Source: Bacteroidia bacterium
GTDB taxonomy: Bacteria; Bacteroidota; Bacteroidia; UBA8524
Direction of reading: 5' to 3'
DNA: 64,000 nt
NCBI GenBank assembly: GCA_037968475.1
Contig: JBBKVO010000017.1
Location: 78,598 to 142,597, forward strand
The notes under the pieces are model-generated. The model saw only the letters and a program-made list of their open reading frames with translations. It was not told where the DNA came from and made no database searches. Numbering within the stretch: the stretch's first letter is position 1; the number at the start of each line of letters is the position of its first letter. Of this stretch, positions 1 through 18,506 are shown piece after piece. Made by a program: the position numbers and the translations under genes.

Positions 1-3000
1 GAAGTTGGCTGATAAGTTGAATCTGTTGCAGATTGGATAGTACTCCATGTTATTGAATCACTGGAGCTTTCCCATTGATAATTAAAAGATGAAGTGCCGC
101 CAATAGGAATTGTCCCCGTTAATTTTGAAGGAGTAAAACCCTGACAATTTGCTTGAGGAGCTGTGATTGAATTATTAGTAACCCCTGGTGTAACTACAAC
201 CTTAACGATATTAGACGTATCTGAACAATCTCCTGAAGCAATAATTCTTCTGTACCAAGTCGTAATTGAAAGTGAGGGAGGCAGATAATCCGAAGATGTA
301 GCCCCTGATACATTACTCCATGAGATAGAATCGGTTGAAGATTGCCATTGATAGTTATAAGTGTTATTTCCACCAATAACAGTGCTATCTGATATTAATT
401 TTTGCGGTTGTGCCCCTGCACAAATACTTTGGGGCGTTTTAATTTTATTACCCCCAATATTTGGGTTAACGATGACCTGTTTGGTTAATGAGTCTTTGCA
501 GCCTCGATTTGACGTTGTCATCAACTTTACTTGATATGTATTACCAGCCGAATATTGTTTTGTGGGATTGGCTTGGATTGAAGTATCATTAACAATACTT
601 GAAAACATCCATAAGTAGTTTAAAGTTCCTGATGATATAGAAGAACTGTTTGTGAATACAAATGAGTTACCCCTCAAACATTGGAAAGTATCATTAATAG
701 AAAAAGTAGGTGTGGGTTTAGGAAATACATACACATTTTTAAATGTAGTGTCTTTACAGCCGTTGAATGTGGTTACAATTAACCGCACCAAAAAAGTATC
801 AGTAGTTGTGTAGTTTTTTTGAGGATGTTGATTGGTTGATGTGCTGTTATCCCCGAAATTCCAACTCCACTGATTAATGGAATATCCACTAGGAATAGCA
901 GATGTATCTCTAAATAAAAAGTTGTTACCATTAATACACTGCATAGAATCAGTTATGCCAATGCGAGCAATAGGCTCAGGCCATACATATACATTTTTAT
1001 ATGCCGTATCACGGCAGCCTTTATCAGAAATGGCAATAAGTCTTACGGATCGATTACCGTAGTTTGAATACACTTTTGACGGGGAAATAACATTAGAAGT
1101 ATCAGCAGCGCTAGAAGAAAATAACCACTTATAACTTAATGTTCCCGCTGATATTGAGGAAGAATTTGTGAATTCAAACTTATGACCTCTCTCGCATTGG
1201 CCACTGTCGTTTACTGAAAAAACAGCAACAGGTACAGGAAAAACAACTACTGTTTTACTAATAGAATCTTTACACAAAGAATCAGTAGTAACGATCAATT
1301 TAGTGGTATAGCTGCCCGCAGCAGTGTATGCTTTGTTAATGTTTTTGCCTGTATTGGATGTGTTATCACCAAACGTCCAATTATAAGCGGTTATACTACC
1401 TGATGCCACAGAGGATGAATCAGCAGAAAATGCAATCGGGTTACTTTTACAAGTATCTCTAAAAGAAAACTTGGCAACTGGTTTAGGGAGCACATAAATA
1501 GTTTTAGCTAGCGAATCCTTACACCCATCTGTAGTGGTTACAACCAGTTTGGCTGTAAACTGGCCACTGTATGTGAAACTCTTTGCCAATGAGCTAGCCG
1601 ATGATGTAGTTGTATCAGAAAACGTCCAGCGATATTGAGAAATAGTACTACCCGTAACGGTTGAGGTTGAAGCAAAATTTATAGCAAAACCATAACAAGC
1701 ATTTGGGGCAGTGAACGAAGCAGTTACTTTTGGATAGATACCTATTTTGATGAAATTAGAAATACTTGTGCAAGTGCCTGATGTTACATTTCTACGATAA
1801 TAAATAGTGTTACTAAGAGTTCCGGGTTGGTAGCTGCTATCATTAGCTGAAGTTATTACATTCCATGTAATAGAATCGTTAGAACTTTCCCATTGGTAAG
1901 TAAATGTAGAAATTCCACCCGATGGAGTGGTTCCTGTAAGTTTATTGGGAGTAAAATTAGTACAGCCTGATTGTGCTGAAGAAATAGTATTGTTATTTAT
2001 TCCTGTTGTTACAGTTATCTTAATTTTATTTGAAGTGTCTGCGCAATCTCCGGAAGCTATAATTCTTCTGTACCAAGTTGTAACTGATAATGAATTCGGT
2101 TGATAATCCGTAGAGGTAGCCCCAGACACATTATTCCATGAAATAGAATCTGTCGAAGACTGCCACTGATAGCTATATGTGTTATTTCCACCAATAATAG
2201 TACTATCTGATATTAATTTTTGTGGTTGTGCCCCTGCACAAATACTTTGAGGTGTTTTAATTTTATTACCTGCAATATTTGGGTTAACTATAACCTGTTT
2301 GGTTAAAGAATCTTTACAACCTCTATTTGAAGTTACTATCAACTTTATTTGATACGTGTTACCAGCCGAATATTGTTTTGTTGGGTTGGCTTGGCTCGAA
2401 GTGTCGTTCGCAATACTTGAAAACTTCCATAGGTAATTTAAAGTTCCCGATGTAATAGAAGAGCTATTAGTAAGAGTAAATAAATTCCCTCTTAAACACT
2501 GAAAAGTATCATTAATAGAAAAAACTGGGACAGGTGTTGGAAATACATACACATTTTTAAATGCAGTATCCTTACACCCATTGGCAGTTGTAGCAATTAA
2601 ACGCACCAAAAAAGTATCGACAGTGGTATAGGTTTTTTGAGGATGCTGGTTAGTAGATGTACTATTATCACCAAAACTCCAACTCCACTGGTTAATAGAA
2701 TATCCACTAGGTATAGTTGATGTATCTCTAAACAAGAAATGATTTCCATTGATACATTGCATAGAATCAGTTATGCTAATGCGAGCAATAGGTTCAGGGT
2801 AAACATACATGGTTTTTGCTAAGGTGTCTTTACATCCCTTATCCGTAGTTGTAATGAGCCTTACAACATAATTTCCGTATGTATTATATGTTTTTGATGG
2901 GCTTGTTTGGTTGGATGTATCACCAGTTGATGTTGAAAACAACCATTTATATGTGAGCGAACCCGAGGATACCGTTGATGTATTTGTAAAATCAAATTTA

Positions 3001-5933
3001 TTTCCTTTAAAACATTGGTCGCTATCATTTACTGTAAAGATGGGGTTGCCTTTTGGAAATATGTATACGTTTTTAGTAATAGAATCTTTGCACCCATTGT
3101 TTGATGTTGCTATGAGTTTTACTGCATAAGTACCTGCACTGGCATAGCTTTTAGATGGATTTTGTTGATTTGAAGTATCGCTTGTGGTAGAGCTAAATCG
3201 CCATAAATAATTTAAACTACCTGAGCTTATTGTAGAGCTATTTGTAAATGTAAATAAGTTGCTATTTCCACATTGGTCAGTATCGTTTACAGAAAATAAA
3301 GCTACGGGTTTAGCAAATACTATCACCTGTTTAGTAATAGAATCTTTACACCCTTTATCAGAAATGGCCAATAATTTTACTGAATACGTCCCTACTGATG
3401 TATATGTTTTTGTTGGATTTTTTATTGATGATGTGTCGCTTGCTGTACTTGAGAATTTCCACAGATATGTTAATGTGCCAGTGGAAATACTTGAGTTATT
3501 AGTGAAATTGAATACGTTTCCGTTTACACACTGGTCAGTATCATTTACTGAAAATGAAACGGATGGATTATTGTAAACCGTAACATTTTTTGTAGTAGAG
3601 TCTTTGCATCCTAAATTACTTGTAAGTACTAATTTTACAGTATATGAACCAGCACTTGAGTATGAGATATTGTGACTTACGGTTGAAGCTGTTGTGCTGT
3701 TTCCAAAAGTCCATAGCCTAGTACTTATAGAACCCGATGCTATGCTACTACTATCGATAAAGGTAAAACTATTTGTATTTAGACATTGGCTTGAATCATT
3801 TACAGAAATTTTGGGTATTGGTAAAGGATTAATAAATATAGTTTGTATAGCCGTATCGCTACTACACTCATTACTAAAAATTATTTGAACCTTAAATGAA
3901 CCTGAACTATTAAACTTTACTGTTGTTGAAGATGATATTGAATCACCACCAACAAACGTATAGCTACCTCCTGTTACCTTCCATTTGTAACGTAATGTAT
4001 CGCCATTATTAGTTGTATAAACGGGTTTATGCGCAGTGTCTGATGCTGCGGGATTAAACGTTATTGTTTTAGGCTCACAATAGGTTTTAGGGGCGGGTAA
4101 TGTAACCGATGGTTTACCTTTAATATTAATATTTTTAGAAGCAGTATCACTGCCACAATAATTGCTTACTTTTTGTTGAATAGTGAAGGCTCCACCTCCT
4201 GAAAATAATATAGAAGGATTTGCAGTTGTTGAACTTCCTGATGAATAACTAAAACCTGTGTTGGGGTTTATCGTCCACAAATAACTTCTATGTACCCCTT
4301 TTGAGGTATCTACCATATTTAGTGTAACAGGGGCACATATATTTCCGCCTCCGGGATTATTAAATTTAAAACCTGCAACTGGCTTTTTGTGTATGCGGAT
4401 GGTTCTAATAGCGGTGTCGTTTCCACAAAGCCCTTGTGAAGTGTTATTGGTGGTATTACCCGTTACTAATTTAATAGTAAATAAGCCTGTATCAGTAAAT
4501 TTAATTGACAATGTGTTTGAGCCCCAATTAGATGAACTTCCATAATTGGTTTGTGTCCCAGTGTCGCCGCTACTAATTGTCCAGCCAGTATTTGGACTAA
4601 TACGCCAAATTAGTCGCTTAGTATTATCACAAGTGAAAGTATTTTTAATTGAGTTCCCCGCTGTTGATGTATCAGTAAACTTAACTATATCATTTAAACA
4701 GGCAGAATCTTTATCTTTTGTAAACCCTGCTTTTGGTTTTTCGCTAATGAGAATACGGGGTAAAATAGCAGGATTAGGACCACAACCATTTTCAGCAATT
4801 AATGTGGCCTGAAAAGAATTATTATACGATACTGAATTAGAACCGCAAGATGACTTTGTAAATGTTTTTACATAAGTTGATGGGTACGTGGTTGTGTCGT
4901 ACGATATAGGCGGAGTGCCATCAGTAAATAGTAATGTATATTTAGTGCCTGTCGTATTTTTCCGTAATCCCGTAGCTGACGAAGTATCAATGGTGAAAGT
5001 AATAGTATGAGGGGCGCAACCGTCTGTTGTGCCAAGGTTTCCAAGATTTGAAGCAGGATTGCTGCCATTGTATGGGTTATATACTTTAGTTGATTTACAC
5101 CCTACCGAATCCGTGACTGTAAGTGTAAGAGTATAATAACCAAAACCAATATAATTATGCGTAATGGTATCAAAACCATTATTAAAAGTTGCACTTGAGT
5201 TGTTGCCCCAAGTAATTTCATACAACTTGTCGGTAGTTTTTGATGTACTTATATTTTTTACTAGCAATGCAAAAACAGTATCCCTGCTACATTGGGCAAA
5301 ATTATTAAATCCTTGGTCTTCAAGTGTGGCGTCAGGTCTTGTGCGTACAAGTACAGTTTTGGTAGTAGTGCTTTTACATCCATAAGCATCCGTTACTGTT
5401 AGTGTTGTAGTGTACGATACTTTTTTGCGTGTTCCAACGGTGTCAAACTTATGTGAGGGGTTTGTGAGCAAACTGGTATTGGAGGTGCTACTGCTATTTC
5501 CAAAATTCCATGATGAGCTTAGCCCTGTTCCCGTTGAGGCGTTTGTAAAATTAACTGCGGTGAGTGAGCAAGCACTATCGGGTGAAAATGTAAATGAGGC
5601 TGTTGGAAGTGCGAAAACTGAGTATCTTTTGAAGGAGGAATCTACACAAGAAGGCGAACTAAAATAGCGGTACATCCACACAGTATCGTTCGTTACTGTT
5701 GAAGTATATGTTTTGGTTATAGAACTGGCTTTGGTTCGGGTGTTTTTATACACCCAAACAACAGAATCAGCAGCGGGTGATGGTGTTGTAGTATCAGTAA
5801 AAGTTATAACTTGATTAATACATAAGGGTGATGATGTTGTGAACCCATTAGTACCCCTACATTGTGTAAAAGCTTGATTACTAAAAAGTAAAGCAAGTGC
5901 AGTAAAAGACAGTATTTGTTTAAAACTTGGCAA
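1..5933 (-). CDS. Giant secreted PKD-repeat surface adhesin (SprB-like 'GG..Y.YQW' motifs). The N-terminal part is in the window; the C-terminus runs off the left edge.
   Basis: I translated the minus strand from ~5933 downward. It gives a signal-peptide-like N-terminus (LPSFKQILSFTALALLFSNQAFTQC) followed by >1900 aa with no stop. The body holds many ~80-aa repeats of the PKD pattern (FS.NDT.QC..N.F.FTN.S.I..G.L.YLW.F....DTS...NP.K.Y...G.Y.VKL......GCKDS..K.V.V.P.P). The only in-frame start after the upstream TAA (5937-5939) is TTG at 5931-5933. The ORF track omits this gene because it is edge-truncated. Confidence 0.7.
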   Translation of the reverse strand, partial: MPSFKQILSFTALALLFSNQAFTQCRGTNGFTTSSPLCINQVITFTDTTTPSPAADSVVWVYKNTRTKASSITKTYTSTVTNDTVWMYRYFSSPSCVDSSFKRYSVFALPTASFTFSPDSACSLTAVNFTNASTGTGLSSSWNFGNSSSTSNTSLLTNPSHKFDTVGTRKKVSYTTTLTVTDAYGCKSTTTKTVLVRTRPDATLEDQGFNNFAQCSRDTVFALLVKNISTSKTTDKLYEITWGNNSSATFNNGFDTITHNYIGFGYYTLTLTVTDSVGCKSTKVYNPYNGSNPASNLGNLGTTDGCAPHTITFTIDTSSATGLRKNTTGTKYTLLFTDGTPPISYDTTTYPSTYVKTFTKSSCGSNSVSYNNSFQATLIAENGCGPNPAILPRILISEKPKAGFTKDKDSACLNDIVKFTDTSTAGNSIKNTFTCDNTKRLIWRISPNTGWTISSGDTGTQTNYGSSSNWGSNTLSIKFTDTGLFTIKLVTGNTTNNTSQGLCGNDTAIRTIRIHKKPVAGFKFNNPGGGNICAPVTLNMVDTSKGVHRSYLWTINPNTGFSYSSGSSTTANPSILFSGGGAFTIQQKVSNYCGSDTASKNINIKGKPSVTLPAPKTYCEPKTITFNPAASDTAHKPVYTTNNGDTLRYKWKVTGGSYTFVGGDSISSSTTVKFNSSGSFKVQIIFSNECSSDTAIQTIFINPLPIPKISVNDSSQCLNTNSFTFIDSSSIASGSISTRLWTFGNSTTASTVSHNISYSSAGSYTVKLVLTSNLGCKDSTTKNVTVYNNPSVSFSVNDTDQCVNGNVFNFTNNSSISTGTLTYLWKFSSTASDTSSIKNPTKTYTSVGTYSVKLLAISDKGCKDSITKQVIVFAKPVALFSVNDTDQCGNSNLFTFTNSSTISSGSLNYLWRFSSTTSDTSNQQNPSKSYASAGTYAVKLIATSNNGCKDSITKNVYIFPKGNPIFTVNDSDQCFKGNKFDFTNTSTVSSGSLTYKWLFSTSTGDTSNQTSPSKTYNTYGNYVVRLITTTDKGCKDTLAKTMYVYPEPIARISITDSMQCINGNHFLFRDTSTIPSGYSINQWSWSFGDNSTSTNQHPQKTYTTVDTFLVRLIATTANGCKDTAFKNVYVFPTPVPVFSINDTFQCLRGNLFTLTNSSSITSGTLNYLWKFSSIANDTSSQANPTKQYSAGNTYQIKLIVTSNRGCKDSLTKQVIVNPNIAGNKIKTPQSICAGAQPQKLISDSTIIGGNNTYSYQWQSSTDSISWNNVSGATSTDYQPNSLSVTTWYRRIIASGDCADTSNKIKITVTTGINNNTISSAQSGCTNFTPNKLTGTTPSGGISTFTYQWESSNDSITWNVITSANDSSYQPGTLSNTIYYRRNVTSGTCTSISNFIKIGIYPKVTASFTAPNACYGFAINFASTSTVTGSTISQYRWTFSDTTTSSASSLAKSFTYSGQFTAKLVVTTTDGCKDSLAKTIYVLPKPVAKFSFRDTCKSNPIAFSADSSSVASGSITAYNWTFGDNTSNTGKNINKAYTAAGSYTTKLIVTTDSLCKDSISKTVVVFPVPVAVFSVNDSGQCERGHKFEFTNSSSISAGTLSYKWLFSSSAADTSNVISPSKVYSNYGNRSVRLIAISDKGCRDTAYKNVYVWPEPIARIGITDSMQCINGNNFLFRDTSAIPSGYSINQWSWNFGDNSTSTNQHPQKNYTTTDTFLVRLIVTTFNGCKDTTFKNVYVFPKPTPTFSINDTFQCLRGNSFVFTNSSSISSGTLNYLWMFSSIVNDTSIQANPTKQYSAGNTYQVKLMTTSNRGCKDSLTKQVIVNPNIGGNKIKTPQSICAGAQPQKLISDSTVIGGNNTYNYQWQSSTDSISWSNVSGATSSDYLPPSLSITTWYRRIIASGDCSDTSNIVKVVVTPGVTNNSITAPQANCQGFTPSKLTGTIPIGGTSSFNYQWESSSDSITWSTIQSATDSTYQPT

Positions 5934-6150
5934 GTTTTATAAAATTAATAGAGGCAAATGTATTGCAATAAATTTATCAAATTGTAAAATAGATATTTTT
6001 TTAAAGCTTTTTATTTGTTTTTAGAAAGAAAAAAAATAAATATATAAAAAATATGGATAAATGAGTGGGTGTTTTTAGTTAGTGATGTGTACATAGATAT
6101 AACTACCAAGGTTAATTTAATAAAAACAAAAGATAAATTTTTCAAATTCA

Positions 6151-6232: not shown

Positions 6233-6940
6233 TTAAAAATTATAGCCAATACCCACTGAAGGAATAATATTTCTAACCTTTATATATCCATCAAGTGAGG
6301 ATCGACTGGTATAATTGCCATTCGTATACTGAGTAAACAAAACATTTTCAAATGTTGGTTTAGCAAACATATAATCCAGCGAAGCTAAAAAGCTAAAGTT
6401 ATTACTAAAATTACTTTTAAGCTGAATACCTAATGTACCTGTTAAAGCACTAATGGCAGATGAAGCGGTAATAAACTTAAATGTATTTCCTCCACCTGAT
6501 AAGGTGGTTTGCAGTTCTCCAATACCATAGCTTAAATAGCCGATTTTTAAATGGCCACCAACCACAGTATTGCCCGACGAGTAAAAATTATATCCCCATG
6601 TTGCTGATATACCCAGCCCTGCATACCCCCCTCCATTTGTTGAAGATAAAAAACTGGCCGATTGCTTTTCTATATTTGCATCATACTCATCAGTATTAAA
6701 GCCATTGGTAAAAAGTGATAACTGGCCACCTATATACAATTTGTTAATTGTATGCAAAAAGTCGGCTTGCAAATAAATACCTGTGGTGGCATAACTTGCA
6801 TTGTTTGAATTGTCGGTTTGTGAGTATTGACCGATTGGTATGGCTGAACCCACCTGAAAATTGATGCTGTTTTTTAGCTCTTGGGCTGAGCTATTTAATG
6901 CGAAAAAAAATGCAAGTAAAATTGTTAATAGTGATTTCAT
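6233..6940 (-). CDS. Outer-membrane beta-barrel (porin-like) protein with a signal peptide.
   Basis: N-terminal MKSLLTILLAFFFALNSSAQ. The body has alternating Gly/aromatic-rich beta-strand character and ends in a C-terminal aromatic (..GIGYNF). An 8-bp gap separates it from the upstream gene. Confidence 0.55.
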   Translation of the reverse strand: MKSLLTILLAFFFALNSSAQELKNSINFQVGSAIPIGQYSQTDNSNNASYATTGIYLQADFLHTINKLYIGGQLSLFTNGFNTDEYDANIEKQSASFLSSTNGGGYAGLGISATWGYNFYSSGNTVVGGHLKIGYLSYGIGELQTTLSGGGNTFKFITASSAISALTGTLGIQLKSNFSNNFSFLASLDYMFAKPTFENVLFTQYTNGNYTSRSSLDGYIKVRNIIPSVGIGYNF

Positions 6941-6947
6941 AGGTTTA

Positions 6948-9608
6948 TTAATTTGTTTGTCTTATTTTATTAATTCTAAATATCCAACGTGCTACTCTAT
7001 TAGTTTTTCCATCATTTCTTCTCAAAAGATTATGACCTAAAATCCCCATTCCTTCAATATCAGCTGTAAAAGGGTGTTGAAGTAGTGTGCGGATGTATTG
7101 TTTTATTAGTACCCTGTTTTCTTGATTTTCAAACAACAGTAAAATAAAAAATAGTATCTTATTGTATAATGATATATAAGGCTCAACAAGATGTGTAGGG
7201 CTACGTTTAAATGTATATTCAGGTGCTTTTTGGCTATAATTTGGTTTTATTGTAGAACTGTTAAAATTTAGTGTCTGGTACAATATTGGTTCTGTTCTTT
7301 TTTCTTTTTTGTCAAAATCAATGGCAAAGTAGGCTAAAGCCAAAACGGCTATATCTTTTATTAATGGTTCGCTTGCATTCATCCACCTATACATGGTTTG
7401 TTCAATGCCTGTGAGTGGTCGGCTTGAATACCAAAACGGATATCTTTCACCATCAATAATGGTATATGCAGGCGCGTTCTCTAGCCCTTGTCTTTGATGC
7501 CTATATATAGGCGTAAAGCATTTTATTATTTGTTGCCTATCATCAACTGCTGAATAACTAAATAAAAATTTTACTAATGGTAATGCCGCTTCAGTATCAA
7601 TAGCTATAAGCTTGCTTATAATTGCATAAAATAATGCTGGGTTCACTCTATCTTTACCCAATACATATAGCTCTTTTATAGTTTCGCACAATTGCAAAAA
7701 ATTTTGCTCGTTATTAATAGGTAGCTTTATGTATACGTTTAATACTGTTTGTAGTAATAACCCCGAGCTATTGTTTTCTTGTAAACAAATATTTGCCCAG
7801 TTGTTAAGCCATTCTTCAACCTCATCAGTATAATTTTCGTATGCCTCTAATAATCCATTAACAATAAATTCGCTTCGCTTTTCATTAGTTATAAATTCTG
7901 GCGTAAATAGGGGACGTATTTGGTAAAAATGATTTAATAATAGTTTTGATACTAAAACTTTATAATGCTCCGCAGTCAAATCAATAGGCTTATCAAGTAT
8001 GTATTCCACAAGCTTTATTACTTCTGCCGACAATTGGTTAGGGGCTTCATCTTCTGTAATATATTGTAGGGCACGTATAACTACATTATACAAATACCGT
8101 TTTGCACGTGGGCTTATAACTCCGCTAGTATTACCCTCATCACCATCGTGCAGTATATCCTCAATTTGTTTTCCCGCCTCATCATTTTCAAGCCATCGCC
8201 ATATCAACTTATACAATTGCTCTTCTTTGCCAAGTGATTTCCAGCGCACAATAGCCTTTGCTACAATGCGTTGCAAGCTGTCGTCGTTTGTTGCTGCCAG
8301 CTTAAGTAACTTGCTCTCAACAGCGGGTAGATACTCTAAACCTATGTCGCTAAAAGTTTCAGCAATGGTTTCTCTTAGTACCTGCCTTTTATGGCGAGTG
8401 CTGTGTAGCTCTTGCTTCATGTAGCTTTTATAGCGTGATTGTTGGGCAGCAGTTTCTAATACTGGTATAGCCGCAGCTATATGCCTACGATGGGTTTGCC
8501 AAGCGCAATGCAAAATTTCTGCCCGTTGAAAGGGGAAGCGGCTTTTGATTAATGTTCCTTTACCCGTTTCTCCGTCAAATTTAAAAAAGCCTAAAAGAAA
8601 ATCTAAATCAACATAATCTAAAGCATATAACGATGAATCACGATAATGCCAAAACTCTTCTGTTATCCGCCTCAACACCTCAAAAAACTGGTCTTCGTAT
8701 ACGCCATCTAATAATGCCGCAGCAATAACCATTAATTTTTCTTTTTCAGTATTAATGTTTTTAAACCAACGTGCAACAAGTGTATCTGTTTTATCTGAAA
8801 AACTATTCAGCAACGTATTAAGTGCATCAGCCAAAATGGGCTGTGGCTCTGCGGATAGCAAATCAATAAAGAACCTTACCTGCTCGGGAGTTTGAAATGA
8901 TGTAGCTATTTGAGCTATTGTTTTATTACCCGATAGTGTGGCATTGGTATCAATTTTTTTAGGCTTATTTTCAAAAGTTAAATGATATTTAGTTACACTA
9001 AGCTCGTATGCAAGCACATTAGCAATAGCTTCTTGGCTATAAAGGTTAGTAGAGGGAATTTGAAACCAATATTTTTTTTCTTGATGTGCCTTAAGTTGCC
9101 ATGTTTTTAATTCCAAATCAGTAATTAAAATAATATAATGCTTTCCTCTTGCTGCTTGGCACAACTCATCAGCATCAAACCCAATATTTTTTGGCGCAAA
9201 TTCATTTAAAATAAAAACTGTTGTGTCTTGTTTTTCTTTGATAAAAGAAAATAGTTCTTTCGGTTTTTTGTCTCCGGCAATTTTCTCTAATGTCGATTTA
9301 GATTCAATATCTTGCTCTAACAAATAAGCCAAATGTCGTGCAAATGCATCTTTATCAAACCCGGTTCCACCTGCTAAAATGATAAGGTTATTTTCTGTTA
9401 ACTGCCCAAGTAATAATAGCGTGAATACGGGGCTAATATAATTTTCAGGCGAGTACGAAGCGGTGTTAACAGTAATCCACTCTGTATCATAATAGTTTTC
9501 ATTAATCTGATCCCCACCAATTGCATTTTGGGCATTAATATTAATATTTCCTTCTGCTACAAACCCCACATTATTTATATTGGTCTCACTTATGTTATCC
9601 ATTATCAA
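6948..9608 (-). CDS. Large (886 aa) hypothetical protein. It has an N-terminal Gly/Asn/Ile hexapeptide-like motif, a degenerate P-loop-like segment (LIILAGGTGFDKD ... VFILNEF) and a long alpha-helical repeat region.
   Basis: Long clean ORF that starts 7 bp after the stop of the TIR gene. The Walker-A-like motif has G-x-x-G-F-D-K-D instead of GxxxxGK[ST]. The remainder is helix-rich and matches no family I recognise. Confidence 0.6.
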   Translation of the reverse strand: MIMDNISETNINNVGFVAEGNININAQNAIGGDQINENYYDTEWITVNTASYSPENYISPVFTLLLLGQLTENNLIILAGGTGFDKDAFARHLAYLLEQDIESKSTLEKIAGDKKPKELFSFIKEKQDTTVFILNEFAPKNIGFDADELCQAARGKHYIILITDLELKTWQLKAHQEKKYWFQIPSTNLYSQEAIANVLAYELSVTKYHLTFENKPKKIDTNATLSGNKTIAQIATSFQTPEQVRFFIDLLSAEPQPILADALNTLLNSFSDKTDTLVARWFKNINTEKEKLMVIAAALLDGVYEDQFFEVLRRITEEFWHYRDSSLYALDYVDLDFLLGFFKFDGETGKGTLIKSRFPFQRAEILHCAWQTHRRHIAAAIPVLETAAQQSRYKSYMKQELHSTRHKRQVLRETIAETFSDIGLEYLPAVESKLLKLAATNDDSLQRIVAKAIVRWKSLGKEEQLYKLIWRWLENDEAGKQIEDILHDGDEGNTSGVISPRAKRYLYNVVIRALQYITEDEAPNQLSAEVIKLVEYILDKPIDLTAEHYKVLVSKLLLNHFYQIRPLFTPEFITNEKRSEFIVNGLLEAYENYTDEVEEWLNNWANICLQENNSSGLLLQTVLNVYIKLPINNEQNFLQLCETIKELYVLGKDRVNPALFYAIISKLIAIDTEAALPLVKFLFSYSAVDDRQQIIKCFTPIYRHQRQGLENAPAYTIIDGERYPFWYSSRPLTGIEQTMYRWMNASEPLIKDIAVLALAYFAIDFDKKEKRTEPILYQTLNFNSSTIKPNYSQKAPEYTFKRSPTHLVEPYISLYNKILFFILLLFENQENRVLIKQYIRTLLQHPFTADIEGMGILGHNLLRRNDGKTNRVARWIFRINKIRQTN

Positions 9609-9614
9609 TATTTT

Positions 9615-10184
9615 TTATTTCTTGTTAGTGATAATATCTCTGCCTGCTACGTTTTTGCCGGTAATATTTATGTCGCCACCTATTGATACTGTGCCTGCAT
9701 CAGTTATATTTACTGCTGGTATTTGAGAAGGTTGTGATGTTTTTTTTGTAGATTTTACTATTTTTGGCTTGCAAGCACTAACTATTTGGCGTACAGCTTT
9801 GTCTGTATCATCACTTAGCTTTATAGCAAAATGGTTTTTTTGTAAAGGGAAATTTATTTCTACATCCTCAAAAGGGATATTGAATAATACCGGAATGATA
9901 ATTTTTTTATGCTTTGTTTCTAGGGCTACAGCTGCATTAAACTCTGTGCGTGTCCAAACACTTTTTATATAATTTTGGCTAATAATGGCAATAAAATATC
10001 TGCTTCGTGGTATAGCTTGCTGCAATATCGCCTCTTCCATATCATCCCCCGCATTTAAGTCTGAGCCAGAATACCAAACAGAAAGACCCGCCTCGCGTAA
10101 CTTGGCATTTAGCTCATTGGCTATAGCTGCCTTATCTTTATATGCGTGCGAAAGAAAAATATCGCATTTTTTGTGTTTAGCCAT
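9615..10184 (-). CDS. TIR-domain protein (189 aa) with a C-terminal extension ending in the motif VSIGGDINITGKNVAGRDII.
   Basis: DIFLSHAYKDK...LREAGLSVWYSGSDLNAGDD...AIPRSRYFIAIISQNYIKSVWTRTEF matches the bacterial/plant TIR consensus (D[IV]F[IL]SH, G..V[FW]..., S.W...E[LF]). The glutamate in the S.W..E motif (candidate NADase catalytic Glu) is retained. Confidence 0.8.
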   Translation of the reverse strand: MAKHKKCDIFLSHAYKDKAAIANELNAKLREAGLSVWYSGSDLNAGDDMEEAILQQAIPRSRYFIAIISQNYIKSVWTRTEFNAAVALETKHKKIIIPVLFNIPFEDVEINFPLQKNHFAIKLSDDTDKAVRQIVSACKPKIVKSTKKTSQPSQIPAVNITDAGTVSIGGDINITGKNVAGRDIITNKK

Positions 10185-10404: not shown

Positions 10405-10668
10405 CTACCCTTTAATGATATTTATTGAATATTTGATGTTAGCACTCCCTCCCCCAAGATCAATCACAATATTCCAATTACCTTTATGTGGAACTGATAT
10501 TCTTGCAGGAAGTATTTCATAGAAGCCTCCATAATATTTACAACTTCTACCTGATTTATAATTTGAGTAATTAGTATCATCCATAAGTTTGATATTACAT
10601 TGATGTGTGCATTTAACTTCTACAATATCACCAATGTTTAAATATTCTCGTTTATGTAAGAAATTCAT
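10405..10668 (-). CDS. Small hypothetical protein (87 aa), DUF1883-like.
   Basis: ORF with the pattern IGDIVEVKC.H.CNI.LMDD.NY.NYK.GR...YYGG......ARISVP..G.W..VIDLGGG. This resembles my recollection of the DUF1883 small beta-rich family; the assignment is from memory only. Confidence 0.4.
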   Translation of the reverse strand: MNFLHKREYLNIGDIVEVKCTHQCNIKLMDDTNYSNYKSGRSCKYYGGFYEILPARISVPHKGNWNIVIDLGGGSANIKYSINIIKG

Positions 10669-10685
10669 GATAATTTTTATAGTTT

Positions 10686-11258
10686 CTAAATTTTACCAAG
10701 TTCTTTTAAACGCCAAAAACATTTTGCAGTAATCGCAATATCAATAGATGCATCATGTGCATCTTCAAATTCTTCTCCAAACAACGTATAATGAAGCTCC
10801 TGAAGTTTAGGCCATTTATAGCCTCCAAAACTTCCGGGAATTGCACAAAAACCTGTGGTACTCATCATAGTGCATACTTTGATTTTAGCAGGGATCACGT
10901 TGATCATTCCTTTTCGTATAAATTCAGCACCAACAATTTTTTCATCAAAACTCATATTATGAGCAACTAAGACTTTAGAATTATCAAGTTGATTATTGAA
11001 GTTTTGAAGAACTTCATACAGACTCTTGCCTTCTCTTCGGGCACGTTCAGTTGAAATTCCATGGATGTTAGTTGATTCAGCTGGAATCGAAAAACCTTCT
11101 GGTTTTATAATAAAATTCTCTTCAAGAAGTTTTGTTCCTGCATCATCGTATAAGAGATAGGCTAATTGCACCATACGTGGCCAATTATTAACATCAGTTA
11201 CTGGTGATTTCCAATTATTGGGTAAACCAGTCGTTTCGGTGTCAAAAAATAGATACAT
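10686..11258 (-). CDS. DEDD-family 3'-5' exonuclease (DnaQ/epsilon-like, standalone).
   Basis: Exo I FFDTETTGL, Exo II LVAHNMSFD and Exo III (Y-x3-D) HDASIDIAITAKCF are all present. Confidence 0.8.
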   Translation of the reverse strand: MYLFFDTETTGLPNNWKSPVTDVNNWPRMVQLAYLLYDDAGTKLLEENFIIKPEGFSIPAESTNIHGISTERARREGKSLYEVLQNFNNQLDNSKVLVAHNMSFDEKIVGAEFIRKGMINVIPAKIKVCTMMSTTGFCAIPGSFGGYKWPKLQELHYTLFGEEFEDAHDASIDIAITAKCFWRLKELGKI

Positions 11259-12108: not shown

Positions 12109-13242
12109 CTAACGTATTTGCTGCAAAAACCAGTAGCTCCCTTTTTTTTCAAACACCAAGGTTTCTTGAGGTTTAAATCCCAAAAGGGTTACTGTTCGGT
12201 TTTGCCGGTGGTTTGAAGGCGAAAGTTTAAGATTTATTTCAGCGCACCTTAAAAATTGAGTATAAGCAATATCAATCTCACACAGTCCGTTACCTATTCT
12301 TTTACCCACAATTTCATATTGAACAGGCTCAATATTTATAAGGCTATACAAAAGGCTACTATCGTTTTCTTGTTTAAATATATAGGGGCGATATTGTAAT
12401 AAACCAAAAGGTGCTTCGGCTAATGAGGTATTACTAATTATTCCATTGCTTTTTAAACCTGTTAATGATTGTATATGCTCCATACCATTATAAAAATTAT
12501 AATGGTTTCTGTGTGATGTAATCGTGTGTTGGAAATATAGGCCTTGCTGTTTTTGATTTATAGCTTCAAGCGTGCTTAGCTTGCCGTTTTTTAATACTAA
12601 AACTTCTTGAAAATGGTTTTTAACAAGGGCATCCATTTCTCCTTTACGTTTTTCAACAACTTGATTTATTTCAGTTTTTGATGGCTGTAATGATTGCCTA
12701 TGTGATAGAAAAAGTGCTAGTAAATAAAAAAGCCCCAGCACTATAAATAAATTCCGTATAAATATTTTTTTCTTTTTTATAAAATGCAAACCAAATGCAC
12801 AGTTGTAGTAAACTGCTGGTTTTGGTTCAATTTTTTTAACAATTTCGCTAATTATTGTGTCAATATTAGTTTCTACTACTGCCCATCGATGAAGCAAATC
12901 AGGTTTCTCAGCAGTTACTTCCTCAATAGTTATGTTGTATAATATGGGTACAAATTTTTTGTTTTTTCTTTTCAGTTCTTCCAGTTCTACATGCGCCCAA
13001 TAACTATTATAGTTGTGGGTAATAAGTGCTATGCCTAATCTGTTGTTTTTTAGCCCTTCATAAATTCTATCGGCAATATTATCGCCGGGTTCAAATTCTT
13101 TTTTAGCATACCAAACCCTTAGCCCATGCTCGGTTAGCTTGTTGTATATTTCATTAACAAGCTCTCTGTCTTCTATAACATAAGAGATAAAAATATCGTG
13201 GGTTTTGGGTCCTTCAAACAACATATAGTATATATTGTTCAA
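12109..13242 (-). CDS. TIR-domain protein with a central transmembrane helix and a ~200-aa C-terminal domain of unknown function.
   Basis: The N-terminal HDIFISYVIEDRELVNEIYNKLTEHGLRVWYAKKEFEPGDNIADRI...GIALITHNYNSYWAHVELEEL is a TIR domain and retains Glu in the SxW..E motif. A strong hydrophobic segment follows (IFIRNLFIVLGLFYLLALFLS). The true start may be the internal M at MLFEGPK. Confidence 0.75.
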   Translation of the reverse strand: MNNIYYMLFEGPKTHDIFISYVIEDRELVNEIYNKLTEHGLRVWYAKKEFEPGDNIADRIYEGLKNNRLGIALITHNYNSYWAHVELEELKRKNKKFVPILYNITIEEVTAEKPDLLHRWAVVETNIDTIISEIVKKIEPKPAVYYNCAFGLHFIKKKKIFIRNLFIVLGLFYLLALFLSHRQSLQPSKTEINQVVEKRKGEMDALVKNHFQEVLVLKNGKLSTLEAINQKQQGLYFQHTITSHRNHYNFYNGMEHIQSLTGLKSNGIISNTSLAEAPFGLLQYRPYIFKQENDSSLLYSLINIEPVQYEIVGKRIGNGLCEIDIAYTQFLRCAEINLKLSPSNHRQNRTVTLLGFKPQETLVFEKKGSYWFLQQIR

Positions 13243-13314: not shown

Positions 13315-14064
13315 TTATATCAATGGAAGGTGTTTAAAAACATCTTCTTTAAAAGTATCTCCAACGGCAATTTCATAATCGCCCAGCACTAATACATTGC
13401 CTTTAACTGCATCAACATTGTTAATGTTTACCACGTGCGACCTATGGGCTCTTATAAGACTATCGTGATTGATTTTAATGTTTAATGCCCCCATACTAAT
13501 GCTTTGTGTAAGTTTGGTTTTATTTGTAAGGTATATATGGCAATATGCCCTATCGGCTTCAATAAATAGTATATCAGCTATATCATACTTTTTGTAAGTA
13601 TCATTGCTGTCTTTTAAAAATAACTTTCCTTTTCGCACTACGGCATTTGGATGCTCGGGCTCAATATCATCAATAGATATTTTTCTTTTTTCAGCACTAT
13701 TGTTAATGGCTGTGTGTATACTTACATGCAGTTGATTGGCCGAAAATGGTTTTATTAAATATGCCGCAGGGTTTGTTGCCAGTGCTTTTTGCAAGGTTTT
13801 GCTATCACTTAAGTTTGTAAGAAAAATGATAGGAAAATCATCAATAGCCTTTAGCATTATAGCGGTTTCAATGCCATTTTTTTTGCCTGCTATCATAATA
13901 TCTAAAAAAATCAAATCGGGCAGGTTATTTTTAACTGATTGCAAGGCACTATCGCAATTATCAACACAATCTGTAATTTCGTAGCCTAGTTTGATTAGCT
14001 GATTTGCCATGTCATCGGCAATAAGCTCTTCATCCTCAACAATTAATATTTTTATTGATGGCAT
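13315..14064 (-). CDS. Response regulator, LytTR family (CheY-like receiver plus LytTR DNA-binding domain).
   Basis: KILIVEDEELIADDM...DLIFLDIMIAGKKNG carries the receiver acidic pocket and phospho-Asp. C-terminal ADILFIEADRAYCHIYL...LIRAHRSHVVN is the LytTR signature. Confidence 0.85.
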   Translation of the reverse strand: MPSIKILIVEDEELIADDMANQLIKLGYEITDCVDNCDSALQSVKNNLPDLIFLDIMIAGKKNGIETAIMLKAIDDFPIIFLTNLSDSKTLQKALATNPAAYLIKPFSANQLHVSIHTAINNSAEKRKISIDDIEPEHPNAVVRKGKLFLKDSNDTYKKYDIADILFIEADRAYCHIYLTNKTKLTQSISMGALNIKINHDSLIRAHRSHVVNINNVDAVKGNVLVLGDYEIAVGDTFKEDVFKHLPLI

Positions 14065-14117: not shown

Positions 14118-15974
14118 ATGAGACTAACCCTATTTGCTTGCCTTCTCCTGTTTTTTCACAACTTTGCTGCTGGGCAAAACAGTATTATTACTGATGCAAA
14201 AAGTCTTAGTGATTCAGCTATAAAATTGTTAGGAAATAATGAATATGATTCAGCCCTATCAATTATTAACAAGGCTATTGCAATTTCTCAAAAAAATAAT
14301 GACTCACTCCAAACAGCTAAATGTTTAAACAATATTGGGTTGATATATAGTAGCAAAGGCGATCCTGTAAAAAGTCTTTTTTACTACGAGCAATCGCTGA
14401 AGCTACTTAGGCAGCTTAATAATAAGGAGGATTTTCCTACAGCGCTTTTAAACATAGGTATTTCATACAAAGAACAAGGTATATACGATAGGGCGCTTAA
14501 AAATCTTTTTGAAGCGGTGGCTTTTTTTGAGTTGCGAGGCGAAGCCAAAAAACTATCGTCAGCTTATAATGCTATTGGAAATATTAATAGGATTGAAGGG
14601 AATTATAATTGGGCTTTAGAATACCACACAAAGGCGTTAAAATTGAGGCAAAGCATTAATTATACACAAGGTGTAGCAGCTTCGCTAAGCAGTATTGGGG
14701 TTGTATATAAAGAACTGGGTAAATACGATTCGGCACTATTTTATCTTGGAAAATCTTTGGCATCAATAGAGGTAGGCAAAACAAGGGATGATCACTATGC
14801 CAACACATTATCACACATTGCTGAAATATATGAGATTGAAGAAAGCTACCCAAATGCAAAGAAATATTTTGACAGTGCTTACGCTATTAGAAAGAAAAAT
14901 GATAGTAAAAAAGGAATAGCATATTCGTTATTTGAGTTAGGACGGTTGTATTACTCAACCAATGAGCATACAAAGGCTGAAACATATTTATTAAGAAGTA
15001 TTGATGAGGCTAATAATGTAAAGGCTTTTGATATTGTGCTAAATGCCTATGAAATTTTACGGAAGCTATATAAAAGCAAAAAAAACTACATAAAGGCTAT
15101 TTTGTATGATGATTTGTTTATAAAACTTAATATGCAATTGCTGGGCGAAGAGAAACAAAAATCGCTTACCCAAATGCAGATTAAGTACGAAACTGAAAAA
15201 AAGCAAGAAGAAATTGATAATCTAAATCAAGATAAGCAAACACGCGAAGCTATTTTACAAGCAAAGGAAGCACAACTTGAATCGAAACGAGTTCATAATC
15301 AAAACTTAGTAATTGTTATTGTGTCACTTACACTAATTTTAACATTAGTTTTAGTCTTATTTGTTCTTAGGCTTCGTTATGCAAAAAAACTTGACATTGT
15401 AATGCGTGAATTACACCACAGGGTGAAAAACAATTTTCAGGTATTGTTATCTCTTTTTAATCTTCAACTAGAGGATATAAATGATGAGGAAGCTAAAAAA
15501 GTTATTGCTAGTAACAGTAATCGGATTACGGCCATGATGCTGATACATAGAAAGTTGTATTTTGATAAAGAGATAACAACAGTAAAGGTGGCTGATTATA
15601 TACAAAACATAGTTGAGAACTTGCTTGTGGTTTATGGGCTAAAGAAACGGGGGATAGAAATAAAATACACAATTGATGATAAAATTAAAATTAGTGTTGA
15701 TAATGCCATTTCACTGGGTCTTTTAGTAAACGAATTAGTAACAAACTCTTTTAAGTATGCTTTTGATGATAGGAATAAAAAGCCCCTGCTTTTTATCGAG
15801 CTAACTAAAAATAAGAATAATATTTTACTAGTACAAGATAATTGTACAAATTCAACCGAAGTTATATTTAAAAATTCGTTTGGGTTGAAATTGGTAAATA
15901 CGCAAGTAAAACTTCTAAAAGGCAATTTGCAAAGAACAACTGATAATGGTATTAAATATACAATTGTTTTTTAG
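14118..15974 (+). CDS. Sensor histidine kinase with a periplasmic/N-terminal TPR repeat region, one TM helix, a HisKA_2-type H-box and a HATPase domain.
   Basis: Signal peptide, then multiple 34-aa TPR-like repeats (A..LNNIG.IY...G....SL.YYEQSL). TM helix LVIVIVSLTLILTLVLVLFVL, H-box HHRVKNNFQVLLSLFNLQ, and a C-terminal ATPase region. It is transcribed divergently from the LytTR regulator. Confidence 0.85.
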   Translation: MRLTLFACLLLFFHNFAAGQNSIITDAKSLSDSAIKLLGNNEYDSALSIINKAIAISQKNNDSLQTAKCLNNIGLIYSSKGDPVKSLFYYEQSLKLLRQLNNKEDFPTALLNIGISYKEQGIYDRALKNLFEAVAFFELRGEAKKLSSAYNAIGNINRIEGNYNWALEYHTKALKLRQSINYTQGVAASLSSIGVVYKELGKYDSALFYLGKSLASIEVGKTRDDHYANTLSHIAEIYEIEESYPNAKKYFDSAYAIRKKNDSKKGIAYSLFELGRLYYSTNEHTKAETYLLRSIDEANNVKAFDIVLNAYEILRKLYKSKKNYIKAILYDDLFIKLNMQLLGEEKQKSLTQMQIKYETEKKQEEIDNLNQDKQTREAILQAKEAQLESKRVHNQNLVIVIVSLTLILTLVLVLFVLRLRYAKKLDIVMRELHHRVKNNFQVLLSLFNLQLEDINDEEAKKVIASNSNRITAMMLIHRKLYFDKEITTVKVADYIQNIVENLLVVYGLKKRGIEIKYTIDDKIKISVDNAISLGLLVNELVTNSFKYAFDDRNKKPLLFIELTKNKNNILLVQDNCTNSTEVIFKNSFGLKLVNTQVKLLKGNLQRTTDNGIKYTIVF

Positions 15975-18059: not shown

Positions 18060-18506
18060 TTGCACTTCATCTTAACTTCGCATAACATGAAAGTTCGCCT
18101 TACCAAAGAACAAAAGATAAAGATTGCCAATAGTGATGATGTATTTAAGGTAATGCAAGCAGTATTGCTTAGGCAAAACAAATTACACCGCAGGAAAGAA
18201 TACTTTTGGTCGATAGGATTGAATACAGCTAATGACATTCTTTATATTGAGTTGGTAACTTTAGGAGTACTTAATAAAGTAAATGTTGACCCTGTTGAAC
18301 TATTTAGCTTTGCTGTACAGAAAAAGTGTAAGAAGATTATATTGGTGCATAACCATCCTTCAGATAATGTAACCCCCAGTGCTGATGATATTGCTTTAAC
18401 CCACCATTTGGTAACGGGAGGTAGTTATCTGAGTATAGAAATATTAGACCACATTATTATTACTGAAGAGAAGTTTTACAGTATGGCTTCAAGTGGGTTG
18501 GTGTAG
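18060..18506 (+). CDS. RadC-like JAB/MPN domain protein (DUF2466); the start is probably at the internal Met, 18087.
   Basis: HNHPSDNVTPSADDIALTHHL...LDHIII matches the RadC JAB metalloprotease signature (HNHPSG..PS..D). This family is frequent on mobile elements. Confidence 0.75.
   Translation: MHFILTSHNMKVRLTKEQKIKIANSDDVFKVMQAVLLRQNKLHRRKEYFWSIGLNTANDILYIELVTLGVLNKVNVDPVELFSFAVQKKCKKIILVHNHPSDNVTPSADDIALTHHLVTGGSYLSIEILDHIIITEEKFYSMASSGLV

Follow-up and report, generated by a model that had tools for sequence, protein, structure and literature searches.

Two adjacent genes, encoding a TIR protein and a large receptor-like partner, are described here from a 64,000-nucleotide stretch of DNA of a Bacteroidia bacterium (UBA8524; contig JBBKVO010000017.1, positions 78,598 to 142,597), referred to below as the window. 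An ordered Gly/Asn/Asp/Ile motif is common to the last 32 residues of the TIR protein and the first 38 residues of its partner, and the similarity of the two termini is confirmed to be real and well above chance. In our judgment, the two genes probably constitute an immune-type effector/receptor cassette coupled by an amyloid-signalling-type motif of the BASS kind. A first-pass annotation of this DNA had proposed that the motif is a homotypic adaptor joining the TIR enzyme to its partner, and this proposal is supported, at the level of sequence comparison, by the conservation of the motif, its co-variation within pairs, and its recurrence with interchangeable effectors.

The genes are co-directional on the minus strand, and the features around their junction are as follows, in window coordinates.

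9615 to 10184, minus strand: TIR effector gene, an open reading frame (ORF) of 189 amino acids plus stop (Pfam TIR_2)
9783 to 10160, minus strand: TIR domain, residues 9-134 (Pfam TIR_2, E = 1.8e-24)
9714 to 9782, minus strand: variable Lys/Pro/Ser/Thr-rich linker, residues 135-157, differing in length and sequence among six orthologous or paralogous TIR effectors
9618 to 9713, minus strand: effector-side motif, TIR residues 158-189, VNITDAGTVSIGGDINITGKNVAGRDIITNKK (shuffle test, profile hidden Markov model (HMM) of effector tails, homologue comparison)
9603 to 9614, minus strand: spacer of 12 nt from the TIR stop (TAA 9617-9615) to the ATG of the partner, both ORFs being in one frame
6948 to 9602, minus strand: receptor-like partner gene, 884 amino acids from the ATG at 9602 plus stop, identical to P0001
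9489 to 9602, minus strand: receptor-side motif, residues 1-38, MDNISETNINNVGFVAEGNININAQNAIGGDQINENYY (shuffle test, effector-tail HMM; predicted local distance difference test score (pLDDT) < 50)

The TIR protein ends in ...AVNITDAGTVSIGGDINITGKNVAGRDIITNKK*, and the peptide strings quoted in the first-pass annotation for this end and for the start of the partner are correct translations. The interval given there for the motif, 9488-9692, takes in codons 1-38 of the partner and residues 165-189 of the TIR protein, in which, however, the motif begins slightly earlier, at residue 158 (9713). The partner had also been read as a protein of 886 amino acids from the TTG at 9608; this is an alternative start, and the ATG at 9602 (884 amino acids) is the more likely one, matching the NCBI-derived P0001 and both orthologues. 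The placing of the motif outside the globular TIR fold holds: it follows the Pfam domain (9-134) and the linker in the TIR protein, and in the partner it coincides with 38 disordered residues of the structural model.

BLASTP of the TIR tail against the partner N-terminus gave no alignment, both segments being short and biased in composition. In a chance test, Smith-Waterman scores were compared with those of 2000 composition-preserving shuffles; the window pair reached z = 5.4 (p = 0.0005) and two orthologous pairs reached z = 8.5 and 10.8, with p <= 0.001 in eight of the nine cross comparisons of tails with N-termini. The word-index database holds two orthologues of the partner, with 51% and 30% identity. 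Absence of the motif from orthologous cassettes had been named beforehand as a sign of chance similarity, and both of these cassettes keep it. The six instances share the register [ND]-x-G-h-h-x(x)-G-[ND]-h-x-h-x-G-x-[NQ]-h-A-G-x-D-I-h-x-N, in which the glycines corresponding to TIR G164 and G181, and to receptor G13 and G29, are invariant. An HMM of these six instances found no further motif when the 64-kb window and four related loci (L001-L004) were translated in all six frames, the next best match having E = 4.8, and thus no third motif-bearing gene there. Conversely, an HMM built from nine effector tails only recovered residues 6-37 of the window partner at E = 1.3e-3, and nearly all of its approximately 30 next-best non-training matches (to E ~0.3) were N-termini of the receptor family, at residues ~6-40. 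A motif profile run against the word-index database gave 28 candidates and no match, and Pfam has no match to the motif in either terminus.

A close relative of the TIR protein points in the same direction. The word-index search with this protein returned itself and one 88%-identical homologue, in which the tail has no substitution in 32 residues vs 22 in the remaining 157 (one-sided Fisher p = 0.013); a genome-contig scan with the single TIR protein as query gave no match. The cassette with this 88%-identical TIR protein and invariant tail, P0155/P0153 on a Logan contig of 52.8 kb, is a close relative of the one in the window. Its receptor carries V12A, which brings its 'NNAGFV' nearer to the 'TDAGTV' of the TIR protein.

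The motif had been described as hexapeptide-like, which is only approximately right. The glycine spacing in the window tail is 6, 6, 5, only about three hexads are present there, and the receptor side has a one-residue deletion. A left-handed beta-helix (hexapeptide) or bactofilin reading was rejected, as no Hexapep or bactofilin Pfam match was obtained at E <= 0.1 and the register is broken by the indel.

At the gene junction, the TIR gene (189 or 195 amino acids) ends 0-1 nt ahead of the partner ATG in both orthologous cassettes. In L004 the gap is 0 nt, with TAA followed directly by ATG in frame, and in L001 the genes overlap as TAATG (-1 nt) in different frames. In the window (9600..9617), read-through of the lone TAA would yield a fusion with two tandem copies of the motif.

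The receptor family shows that such pairing is widespread. Among the relatives listed, most N-termini carry short beta-type motifs made of G, N, Q, D, V, and I, and these are of several types, for example VAGRDI..., VALRDV..., GNITQIGQQ..., and VTVGRDL.... In 138 family N-termini, the first 35 residues relative to the rest are enriched in N (2.3-fold), G (1.9-fold), and V and Q (1.35-fold), and depleted in L (0.26-fold) and in K and P (0.72-fold). A genome scan with a pattern from a 14-sequence alignment yielded 25 loci, belonging to Bacteroidota (Cytophagales, Saprospiraceae, Lewinellaceae), Cyanobacteria, one Methanotrichaceae archaeon, and one metagenome-assembled genome of Clostridia. The C-terminal 45 residues of every flanking ORF of at least 70 amino acids were then compared with the receptor N-terminus, and in 20 of 26 loci the best match came from the neighbouring co-directional gene, where 12% would be expected (binomial P = 5e-14); one of the 20, L018, is doubtful. 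In L019 and L020, Bell-like upstream effectors with BASS4-like tails were recognized by inspection only. Gaps between effector and receptor range from -11 to +244 bp and mostly fall between -11 and +10 bp. Motif types vary between loci and match within pairs: the mean score is 51 on the diagonal vs 27 elsewhere, and 13 of 21 pairs have their row maximum on the diagonal.

The effectors that carry the matching tail are of different kinds. TIR effectors are found in the window and in L001, L004, L005, L006, and L007, and a SEFIR/TIR effector in L025; PNP_UDP phosphorylase effectors occur in L009, L010, and L015, and a CHAT effector in L016. Three further effectors are unknown proteins of 275-298 amino acids. 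Small effectors of 127-165 amino acids have the N-terminus 'MEPITAIATTI...' (Bell/HeLo-type), and several of these bear two tandem copies of the motif. In L019, L020, L021, L023, L024, L027, and L028, the upstream Bell-like protein has ~133-158 amino acids and two tandem BASS4-like copies vs one on the receptor, as in ...LEVKGDMIQK...DVKFDGNLTQES.

The TIR protein of the window is an AbTIR-like predicted NADase with the conserved Glu of the W-x-x-x-E motif. Its putative catalytic residue, Glu81, lies inside the W77-T-R-T-E81 motif of the TIR domain and is aligned with the Glu of 'WTEYEL' in AbTIR, and W77 and E81 are invariant across the six TIR effectors of this cassette type. The nearest solved chains are AbTIR (7uxr, 1.3e-15), PdTIR, and TcpB, with E-values of 1e-15 to 1e-13. 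NADase activity of TIR enzymes, including SARM1, plant TNLs, and AbTIR filaments, requires self-association. PADLOC matches were confined to the TIR domain (ThsB-like, PDC-S66) and none fell on the partner, and the pair corresponds neither to Thoeris nor to another TIR system catalogued there.

The partner has the following features.

8433 to 9479, minus strand: STAND/AAA+-like alpha/beta module, approximately residues 42-390
9348 to 9371, minus strand: degenerate Walker A-like loop GGTGFDKD, residues 78-85 (compared in 51 family members)
7293 to 8414, minus strand: HEAT/ARM-like helical repeats, approximately residues 397-770, presumed sensor (secondary structure of the model, fold matches)
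6954 to 7169, minus strand: C-terminal helical bundle, residues 812-883, after a borderline hydrophobic helix at 805-823 (AlphaFold2 model)

A search of the partner against Pfam, NCBIfam, and PADLOC gave no family match and no NACHT or NB-ARC, with a faint nSTAND3 match at E = 0.078 as the sole hit. The word-index search with the partner found three proteins only, and the size of the family became apparent only from an exhaustive profile search of 1.84 billion cluster representatives (clusters at 50% identity), which returned 509 relatives as a lower bound, 337 of them at E <= 1e-30. With 509 cluster representatives lacking a Pfam or NCBIfam model, the family of the partner is sizeable and unnamed; it spans Bacteroidota, Cyanobacteria, Methanotrichaceae, and Clostridia.

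An AlphaFold2 model of the partner monomer, based on a 51-sequence alignment, has a pLDDT of 85.4 and a predicted template modelling score of 0.80; an earlier model on a 3-sequence alignment had a pLDDT of 53 in the N-terminal half. In the newer model, residues 1-38, which are exactly the motif, are disordered (pLDDT < 50), residues ~42-390 form an alpha/beta region, and residues ~400-770 form helical repeats. The best structural matches of the N-terminal half are Avs5 (SIR2-STAND), SAMD9, and the NB-ARC modules of plant NRC proteins, at ~10% identity, and those of the repeat region are PP2A-A, karyopherin-beta2, beta-catenin, TOG, and CLASP; relatives of the partner show weak HEAT_2 matches. 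The model has the STAND-type layout of a P-loop alpha/beta fold, helical and winged-helix modules, and then repeats.

The nucleotide-binding motifs depart from this picture. Among 51 members, G78 is conserved in 45, Asp (D83) replaces the second Gly in 44, K84 is present in 42, and position 85 shows no preference for Ser/Thr, which gives a family P-loop consensus of G-x-x-G-F-D-K-x rather than the canonical GxxxxGK[ST]. The Walker B-like strand is followed by P, N, or D with no conserved acidic residue, vs the canonical hhhhD[DE]. With such degenerate Walker motifs, the partner is NLR-like in layout and probably not a conventional NTPase, and its modelled architecture is that of the motif followed by a STAND/NB-ARC-like module and HEAT repeats. 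Degenerate motifs have also been noted in KpAvs8, a functional Avs family.

Sequence features suggest that membrane-spanning versions of the receptor exist in the family. The 19-residue Kyte-Doolittle maximum of the window partner is 1.59, which is borderline for a transmembrane helix, and many relatives (P0014, P0031, P0035, P0037, P0043, P0047, P0054, P0070) show one strong transmembrane helix beyond the HEAT repeats. In the long and presumably cyanobacterial P0031, P0035, P0047, and P0054, this helix is followed by an ARC6-like IMS domain, in some together with cadherin- or Ig-like domains.

The closest known counterpart of this arrangement is the BASS pair, in which a motif of 20-30 amino acids occurs at the C-terminus of an effector and at the N-terminus of a receptor, the two genes being adjacent and collinear (Dyrka et al., 2020, bioRxiv 10.1101/2020.01.06.895854). 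The likeness extends to the terminal positions (TIR 158-189, receptor 1-38, and ~20 related loci), to adjacent collinear genes with gaps mostly <= 10 bp or overlapping, to a G/N/Q/V/I-rich and K/P/L-poor composition, and to the pair-specific similarity. BASS effectors include TIR2 and CHAT, and TIR and CHAT are found here too; the taxonomic spread over Cyanobacteria, Methanotrichaceae-type archaea, and filamentous Bacteroidota is also alike. Effector domains of the TIR, CHAT, PNP_UDP, and Bell/HeLo-like types have been linked to amyloid motifs in bacteria and fungi, and PNP_UDP is known from fungal pairs (Dyrka et al., 2020). In the BASS1 exemplars of Table S2, the effector reads ...YQAGRDQHI and the receptor ...YQAGGDQYI (Dyrka et al., 2020), and the same contrast of 'AGRD' on the effector vs 'GGDQ' on the receptor is seen in the window pair. 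The motifs of cyanobacterial family members match BASS4 exemplars with z of 6.2-6.7. There are also differences, as the receptors of the BASS survey are NACHT or NB-ARC proteins, whereas those described here form a STAND-like family of their own, in which Walker A and B are degenerate and HEAT repeats are present. Since the receptor has no NACHT/NB-ARC Pfam signature, the Pfam-based survey should not have recovered it. The survey has no classified BASS pair in Bacteroidota (Dyrka et al., 2020). Tested representatives of BASS families form prions and fibrils.

A second counterpart is the Bab/Agp system of E. coli, an anti-phage abortive infection system in which the non-NLR Agp activates a Bell-like effector via the BASS11 amyloid motif during infection by phage T5 (Ibarlosa et al., 2024, bioRxiv 10.1101/2024.11.07.622273). 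BASS11 is stated to occur on TIR, CHAT, NACHT, and NB-ARC proteins, and the Bell/HeLo-type N-terminus is highlighted in the same study (Ibarlosa et al., 2024). Like the cassette in the window, Bab/Agp has two genes, a shared terminal motif, and a receptor that is not a canonical NLR. The model of the Bab/Agp motif has four short beta-strands interrupted by glycines, which resembles what is proposed here. The two systems differ in that the Bab/Agp effector is a small Bell-like membrane protein and its receptor has a TPR-GreA/B-C-PIN architecture, in contrast to a TIR protein and a STAND-like/HEAT receptor. In the fungal NWD2/HET-S, HRAM, sigma, and PP systems, an activated receptor templates the tail of the effector, and PNP_UDP and pore-forming HeLo-like effectors are used (Dyrka et al., 2020; PMC9815663). 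HET-s has two pseudo-repeats vs one receptor copy in NWD2, as is the case for the cyanobacterial Bell-like partners described above. However, the fungal systems are eukaryotic, with NACHT/NB-ARC receptors that have active P-loops and with other motif sequences.

Effector-associated domains (EADs), to which the motif was compared in the first-pass annotation, are globular, often Death-like domains and are much longer than a motif of 25-30 amino acids. In EAD systems, the regulatory or NTPase protein carries one copy of the adaptor and the effector from a neighbouring gene carries another, and inactive STAND (iSTAND) proteins have been described (Kaur et al., 2020, PMC7159879). The analogy is apt in that the same module is present on both partners, and iSTAND is a precedent for degenerate P-loops, but the element here is a short disordered one, MoxR and vWA genes are absent, and the closest analogue is BASS (Dyrka et al., 2020; Ibarlosa et al., 2024). 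EAD membership was accordingly rejected on the lack of a globular, profile-recognizable domain (25-30 amino acids, pLDDT < 50, no Pfam match), and the functional analogy is kept. Avs5, SAMD9, and plant NRC proteins have a NOD-like module followed by repeats, as in the receptor. In Avs5, however, the effector is fused in cis, whereas here it would be supplied in trans through the motif; compared with Avs5-type modules, the receptor has Asp for the second Gly of Walker A and no conserved acid after the Walker B-like strand. NADases of the AbTIR/TcpB type are the closest solved TIR homologues, with the catalytic Glu aligned, but their alignment covers the TIR domain only and includes no counterpart of the C-terminal motif.

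By analogy with these systems, we infer amyloid formation, templating, a trigger, NADase activation, and a role in defence, which would fit together as follows. The receptor would be monomeric until its HEAT-repeat region recognizes a trigger, presumably a phage or other non-self cue, upon which the STAND-like module would oligomerize and gather several N-terminal motifs. The gathered motifs would fold cooperatively into a cross-beta nucleus (beta-arch or solenoid-like) of about four short strands, with the conserved Gly, Asn, and Asp residues at the turns between them, and this nucleus would template the near-identical C-terminal tail of the co-expressed TIR protein. Polymerization of the tails would force the TIR domains close together on their flexible linker of ~20 residues. 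Because AbTIR-like domains need self-association to build the NADase active site, such clustering would yield NAD+ cleavage, leading by depletion or by a signalling nucleotide to growth arrest or cell death.

Several points weigh against this interpretation. Receptors in L012 (the Methanotrichaceae archaeon), L014, and L022 have no N-terminal motif, and the gene immediately downstream of each encodes an N-terminally extended PNP_UDP-domain protein; the family can therefore work without the motif, and a different mode of coupling exists. The window motif compared with BASS1, BASS4, and BASS7 exemplars gives z of 2.7-4.9 as the best of many comparisons with a small exemplar set; this likeness is weak and not significant after multiple comparisons, and the motif is therefore not assigned to BASS1-10. 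Both Walker A and Walker B of the receptor are degenerate, which makes the usual NTP-driven oligomerization step uncertain. Finally, a scan of viral contigs found no relatives of the receptor and none of the PADLOC defence models match it, so that the defence role rests on analogy.

Other explanations of the shared motif have been considered along with amyloid-type coupling. Chance likeness of functionless, low-complexity Asn/Gly/Ile-rich termini would fit the empty BLASTP comparison and word-index motif-profile search, and an AT-rich genome favours N, I, and K; we give it next to no credence. The shuffles preserve composition and the z of 5.4-10.8 is specific to order, the motif persists between orthologues that are 30-51% identical, the tail is invariant in a diverged homologue, and no other match occurs in the 64-kb window. 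Chance similarity is effectively refuted by the shuffle test, the adjacency enrichment (P = 5e-14), and the effector-tail HMM, which finds receptor N-termini. The two ORFs share a frame with one stop and 12 nt between them, and those of L004 are also in frame, as would be expected if the pair were the remnant of a split or read-through TIR-STAND fusion, with the TAA at 9617-9615 as a recent nonsense or read-through site and the likeness as an internal duplication. This origin is highly improbable, as every orthologue and about 20 further loci have the stop, L001 has its TAATG overlap in different frames, gaps vary from -11 to +244 bp, and one fission cannot explain a family-wide two-gene layout with swapped effectors. 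Gene fission or read-through was rejected on the ground that the frame relation is not conserved.

The remaining alternatives accept that the motif is functional. It could be a shared address label, with both termini binding a third partner or site (membrane, cell pole, or scaffold) and not each other. Some family members are membrane-anchored, and a TPR histidine kinase and a LytTR regulator are conserved beside the cassette in eight Bacteroidota loci, so that extra components may exist. However, the motif type changes by locus and yet stays matched within pairs, no third motif-bearing gene is present in the window or L001-L004, and most cyanobacterial loci lack the two-component genes and nevertheless have matched pairs; we regard an address label as improbable. 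Stoichiometric, non-amyloid docking is a more serious alternative, although still an unlikely one: the TIR tail and the receptor N-terminus would form a small beta-sheet or hairpin, with one TIR protein per receptor as a constitutive tether. Activation would then come with oligomerization of the receptor, in the manner of an ordinary NLR whose effector domain is provided in trans. Adjacency, within-pair co-variation, and terminal position would be expected just as much if the tether were specific and heterodimeric, coupled translation, which is likely at gaps of 0-12 nt, suggests near-equimolar synthesis, and disorder of the motif in the monomer model is expected of segments that fold upon binding. 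A heterodimer interface, however, needs no identical sides, and self-similar G/N/Q-rich segments are a signature of homotypic stacking. In addition, several Bell-like effectors have two tandem copies vs one on the receptor, as in HET-s/NWD2, and cyanobacterial members use BASS4-like motifs, the BASS families including tested prion and fibril formers.

The neighbourhood of the cassette has some recurrent features. In the window and in L001, L004, L005, L007, L008, L011, and L013, the region directly upstream of the effector gene encodes a TPR histidine kinase and a LytTR response regulator; in the window, the two genes are at 13315..14064 (minus strand) and 14118..15974 (plus strand). The kinase has ~610-765 amino acids (HisKA_2/HATPase in L001 and L004) and the regulator ~240-250, and the pair recurs although receptor identity is only 25-50%. 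These genes may regulate the cassette or belong to it. A second TIR protein is encoded at 12109..13242 (minus strand), with an N-terminal TIR_2 domain, a hydrophobic, transmembrane helix at residues 160-178 (Kyte-Doolittle 2.31), and a conserved C-terminal domain; it recurs in L001 (3242..4330), L005 (7692..8840), L006 (3713..4816), and L007 (7611..8753), its gene lies immediately downstream of the receptor in L005-L007, and the protein is free of the motif. The two TIR genes of the window are separated by genes for a DEDDh/RNase_T exonuclease at 10686..11258 (PADLOC DEDDh, 1.3e-25) and for a DUF1883 protein at 10405..10668, both on the minus strand, and L001 has an RNase_T gene in the same place. 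The gene that comes immediately downstream of the receptor, at 6233..6940 (minus strand), encodes a 235-amino-acid protein whose N-terminus resembles a signal peptide and for which Pfam and PADLOC give no match; L001 has a gene in the equivalent position (10661..11254). Farther away, an ORF of more than 1978 amino acids at 3..5936 (minus strand) runs off the end of the window and encodes no fewer than 12 PKD repeats (PKD_4, E = 2.4e-116) along with a chitinase-A N-terminal-like segment. The product of 18060..18506 (plus strand) is a RadC-like JAB domain protein (E = 1.9e-33); such proteins are frequent in mobile or defence-associated regions.

The principle of motif-coupled amyloid-type signalling is already known. 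Within the libraries and papers searched, what appears to be new is the receptor family itself, which has at least 509 clusters and is not modelled in Pfam, NCBIfam, or PADLOC, the fact that it uses BASS-type motifs systematically while the effectors are exchanged, and the Bacteroidota variant of the motif on a TIR effector. As a tentative extension of amyloid-type coupling, the family could represent an undescribed NLR-like class, in which a STAND module without canonical nucleotide motifs launches NTP-independent amyloid signalling to exchangeable TIR, PNP_UDP, CHAT, and Bell effectors, some members being transmembrane and those of Bacteroidota being wired to a two-component system.

So far, amyloid signalling in the immunity of prokaryotes has been linked to NACHT/NB-ARC receptors and, in a single case studied by experiment in E. 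coli, to a non-NLR receptor. The locus in the window points to a large, unannotated receptor family that would use the same coupling with a degenerate P-loop and HEAT repeats, and to a TIR NADase as the proposed templated effector in Bacteroidota. If this is true, the phylogenetic and mechanistic range of amyloid signalling would be wider, and a simple test of 'activation by templated clustering' would become available for TIR enzymes. The new receptor family and motif profile would also serve to annotate defence-type cassettes that are missed by Pfam, NCBIfam, and PADLOC. In addition, the membrane-spanning members, with their extracytoplasmic ARC6-IMS, cadherin, and Ig-like domains, would be the first candidates for transmembrane amyloid-templating signalling.

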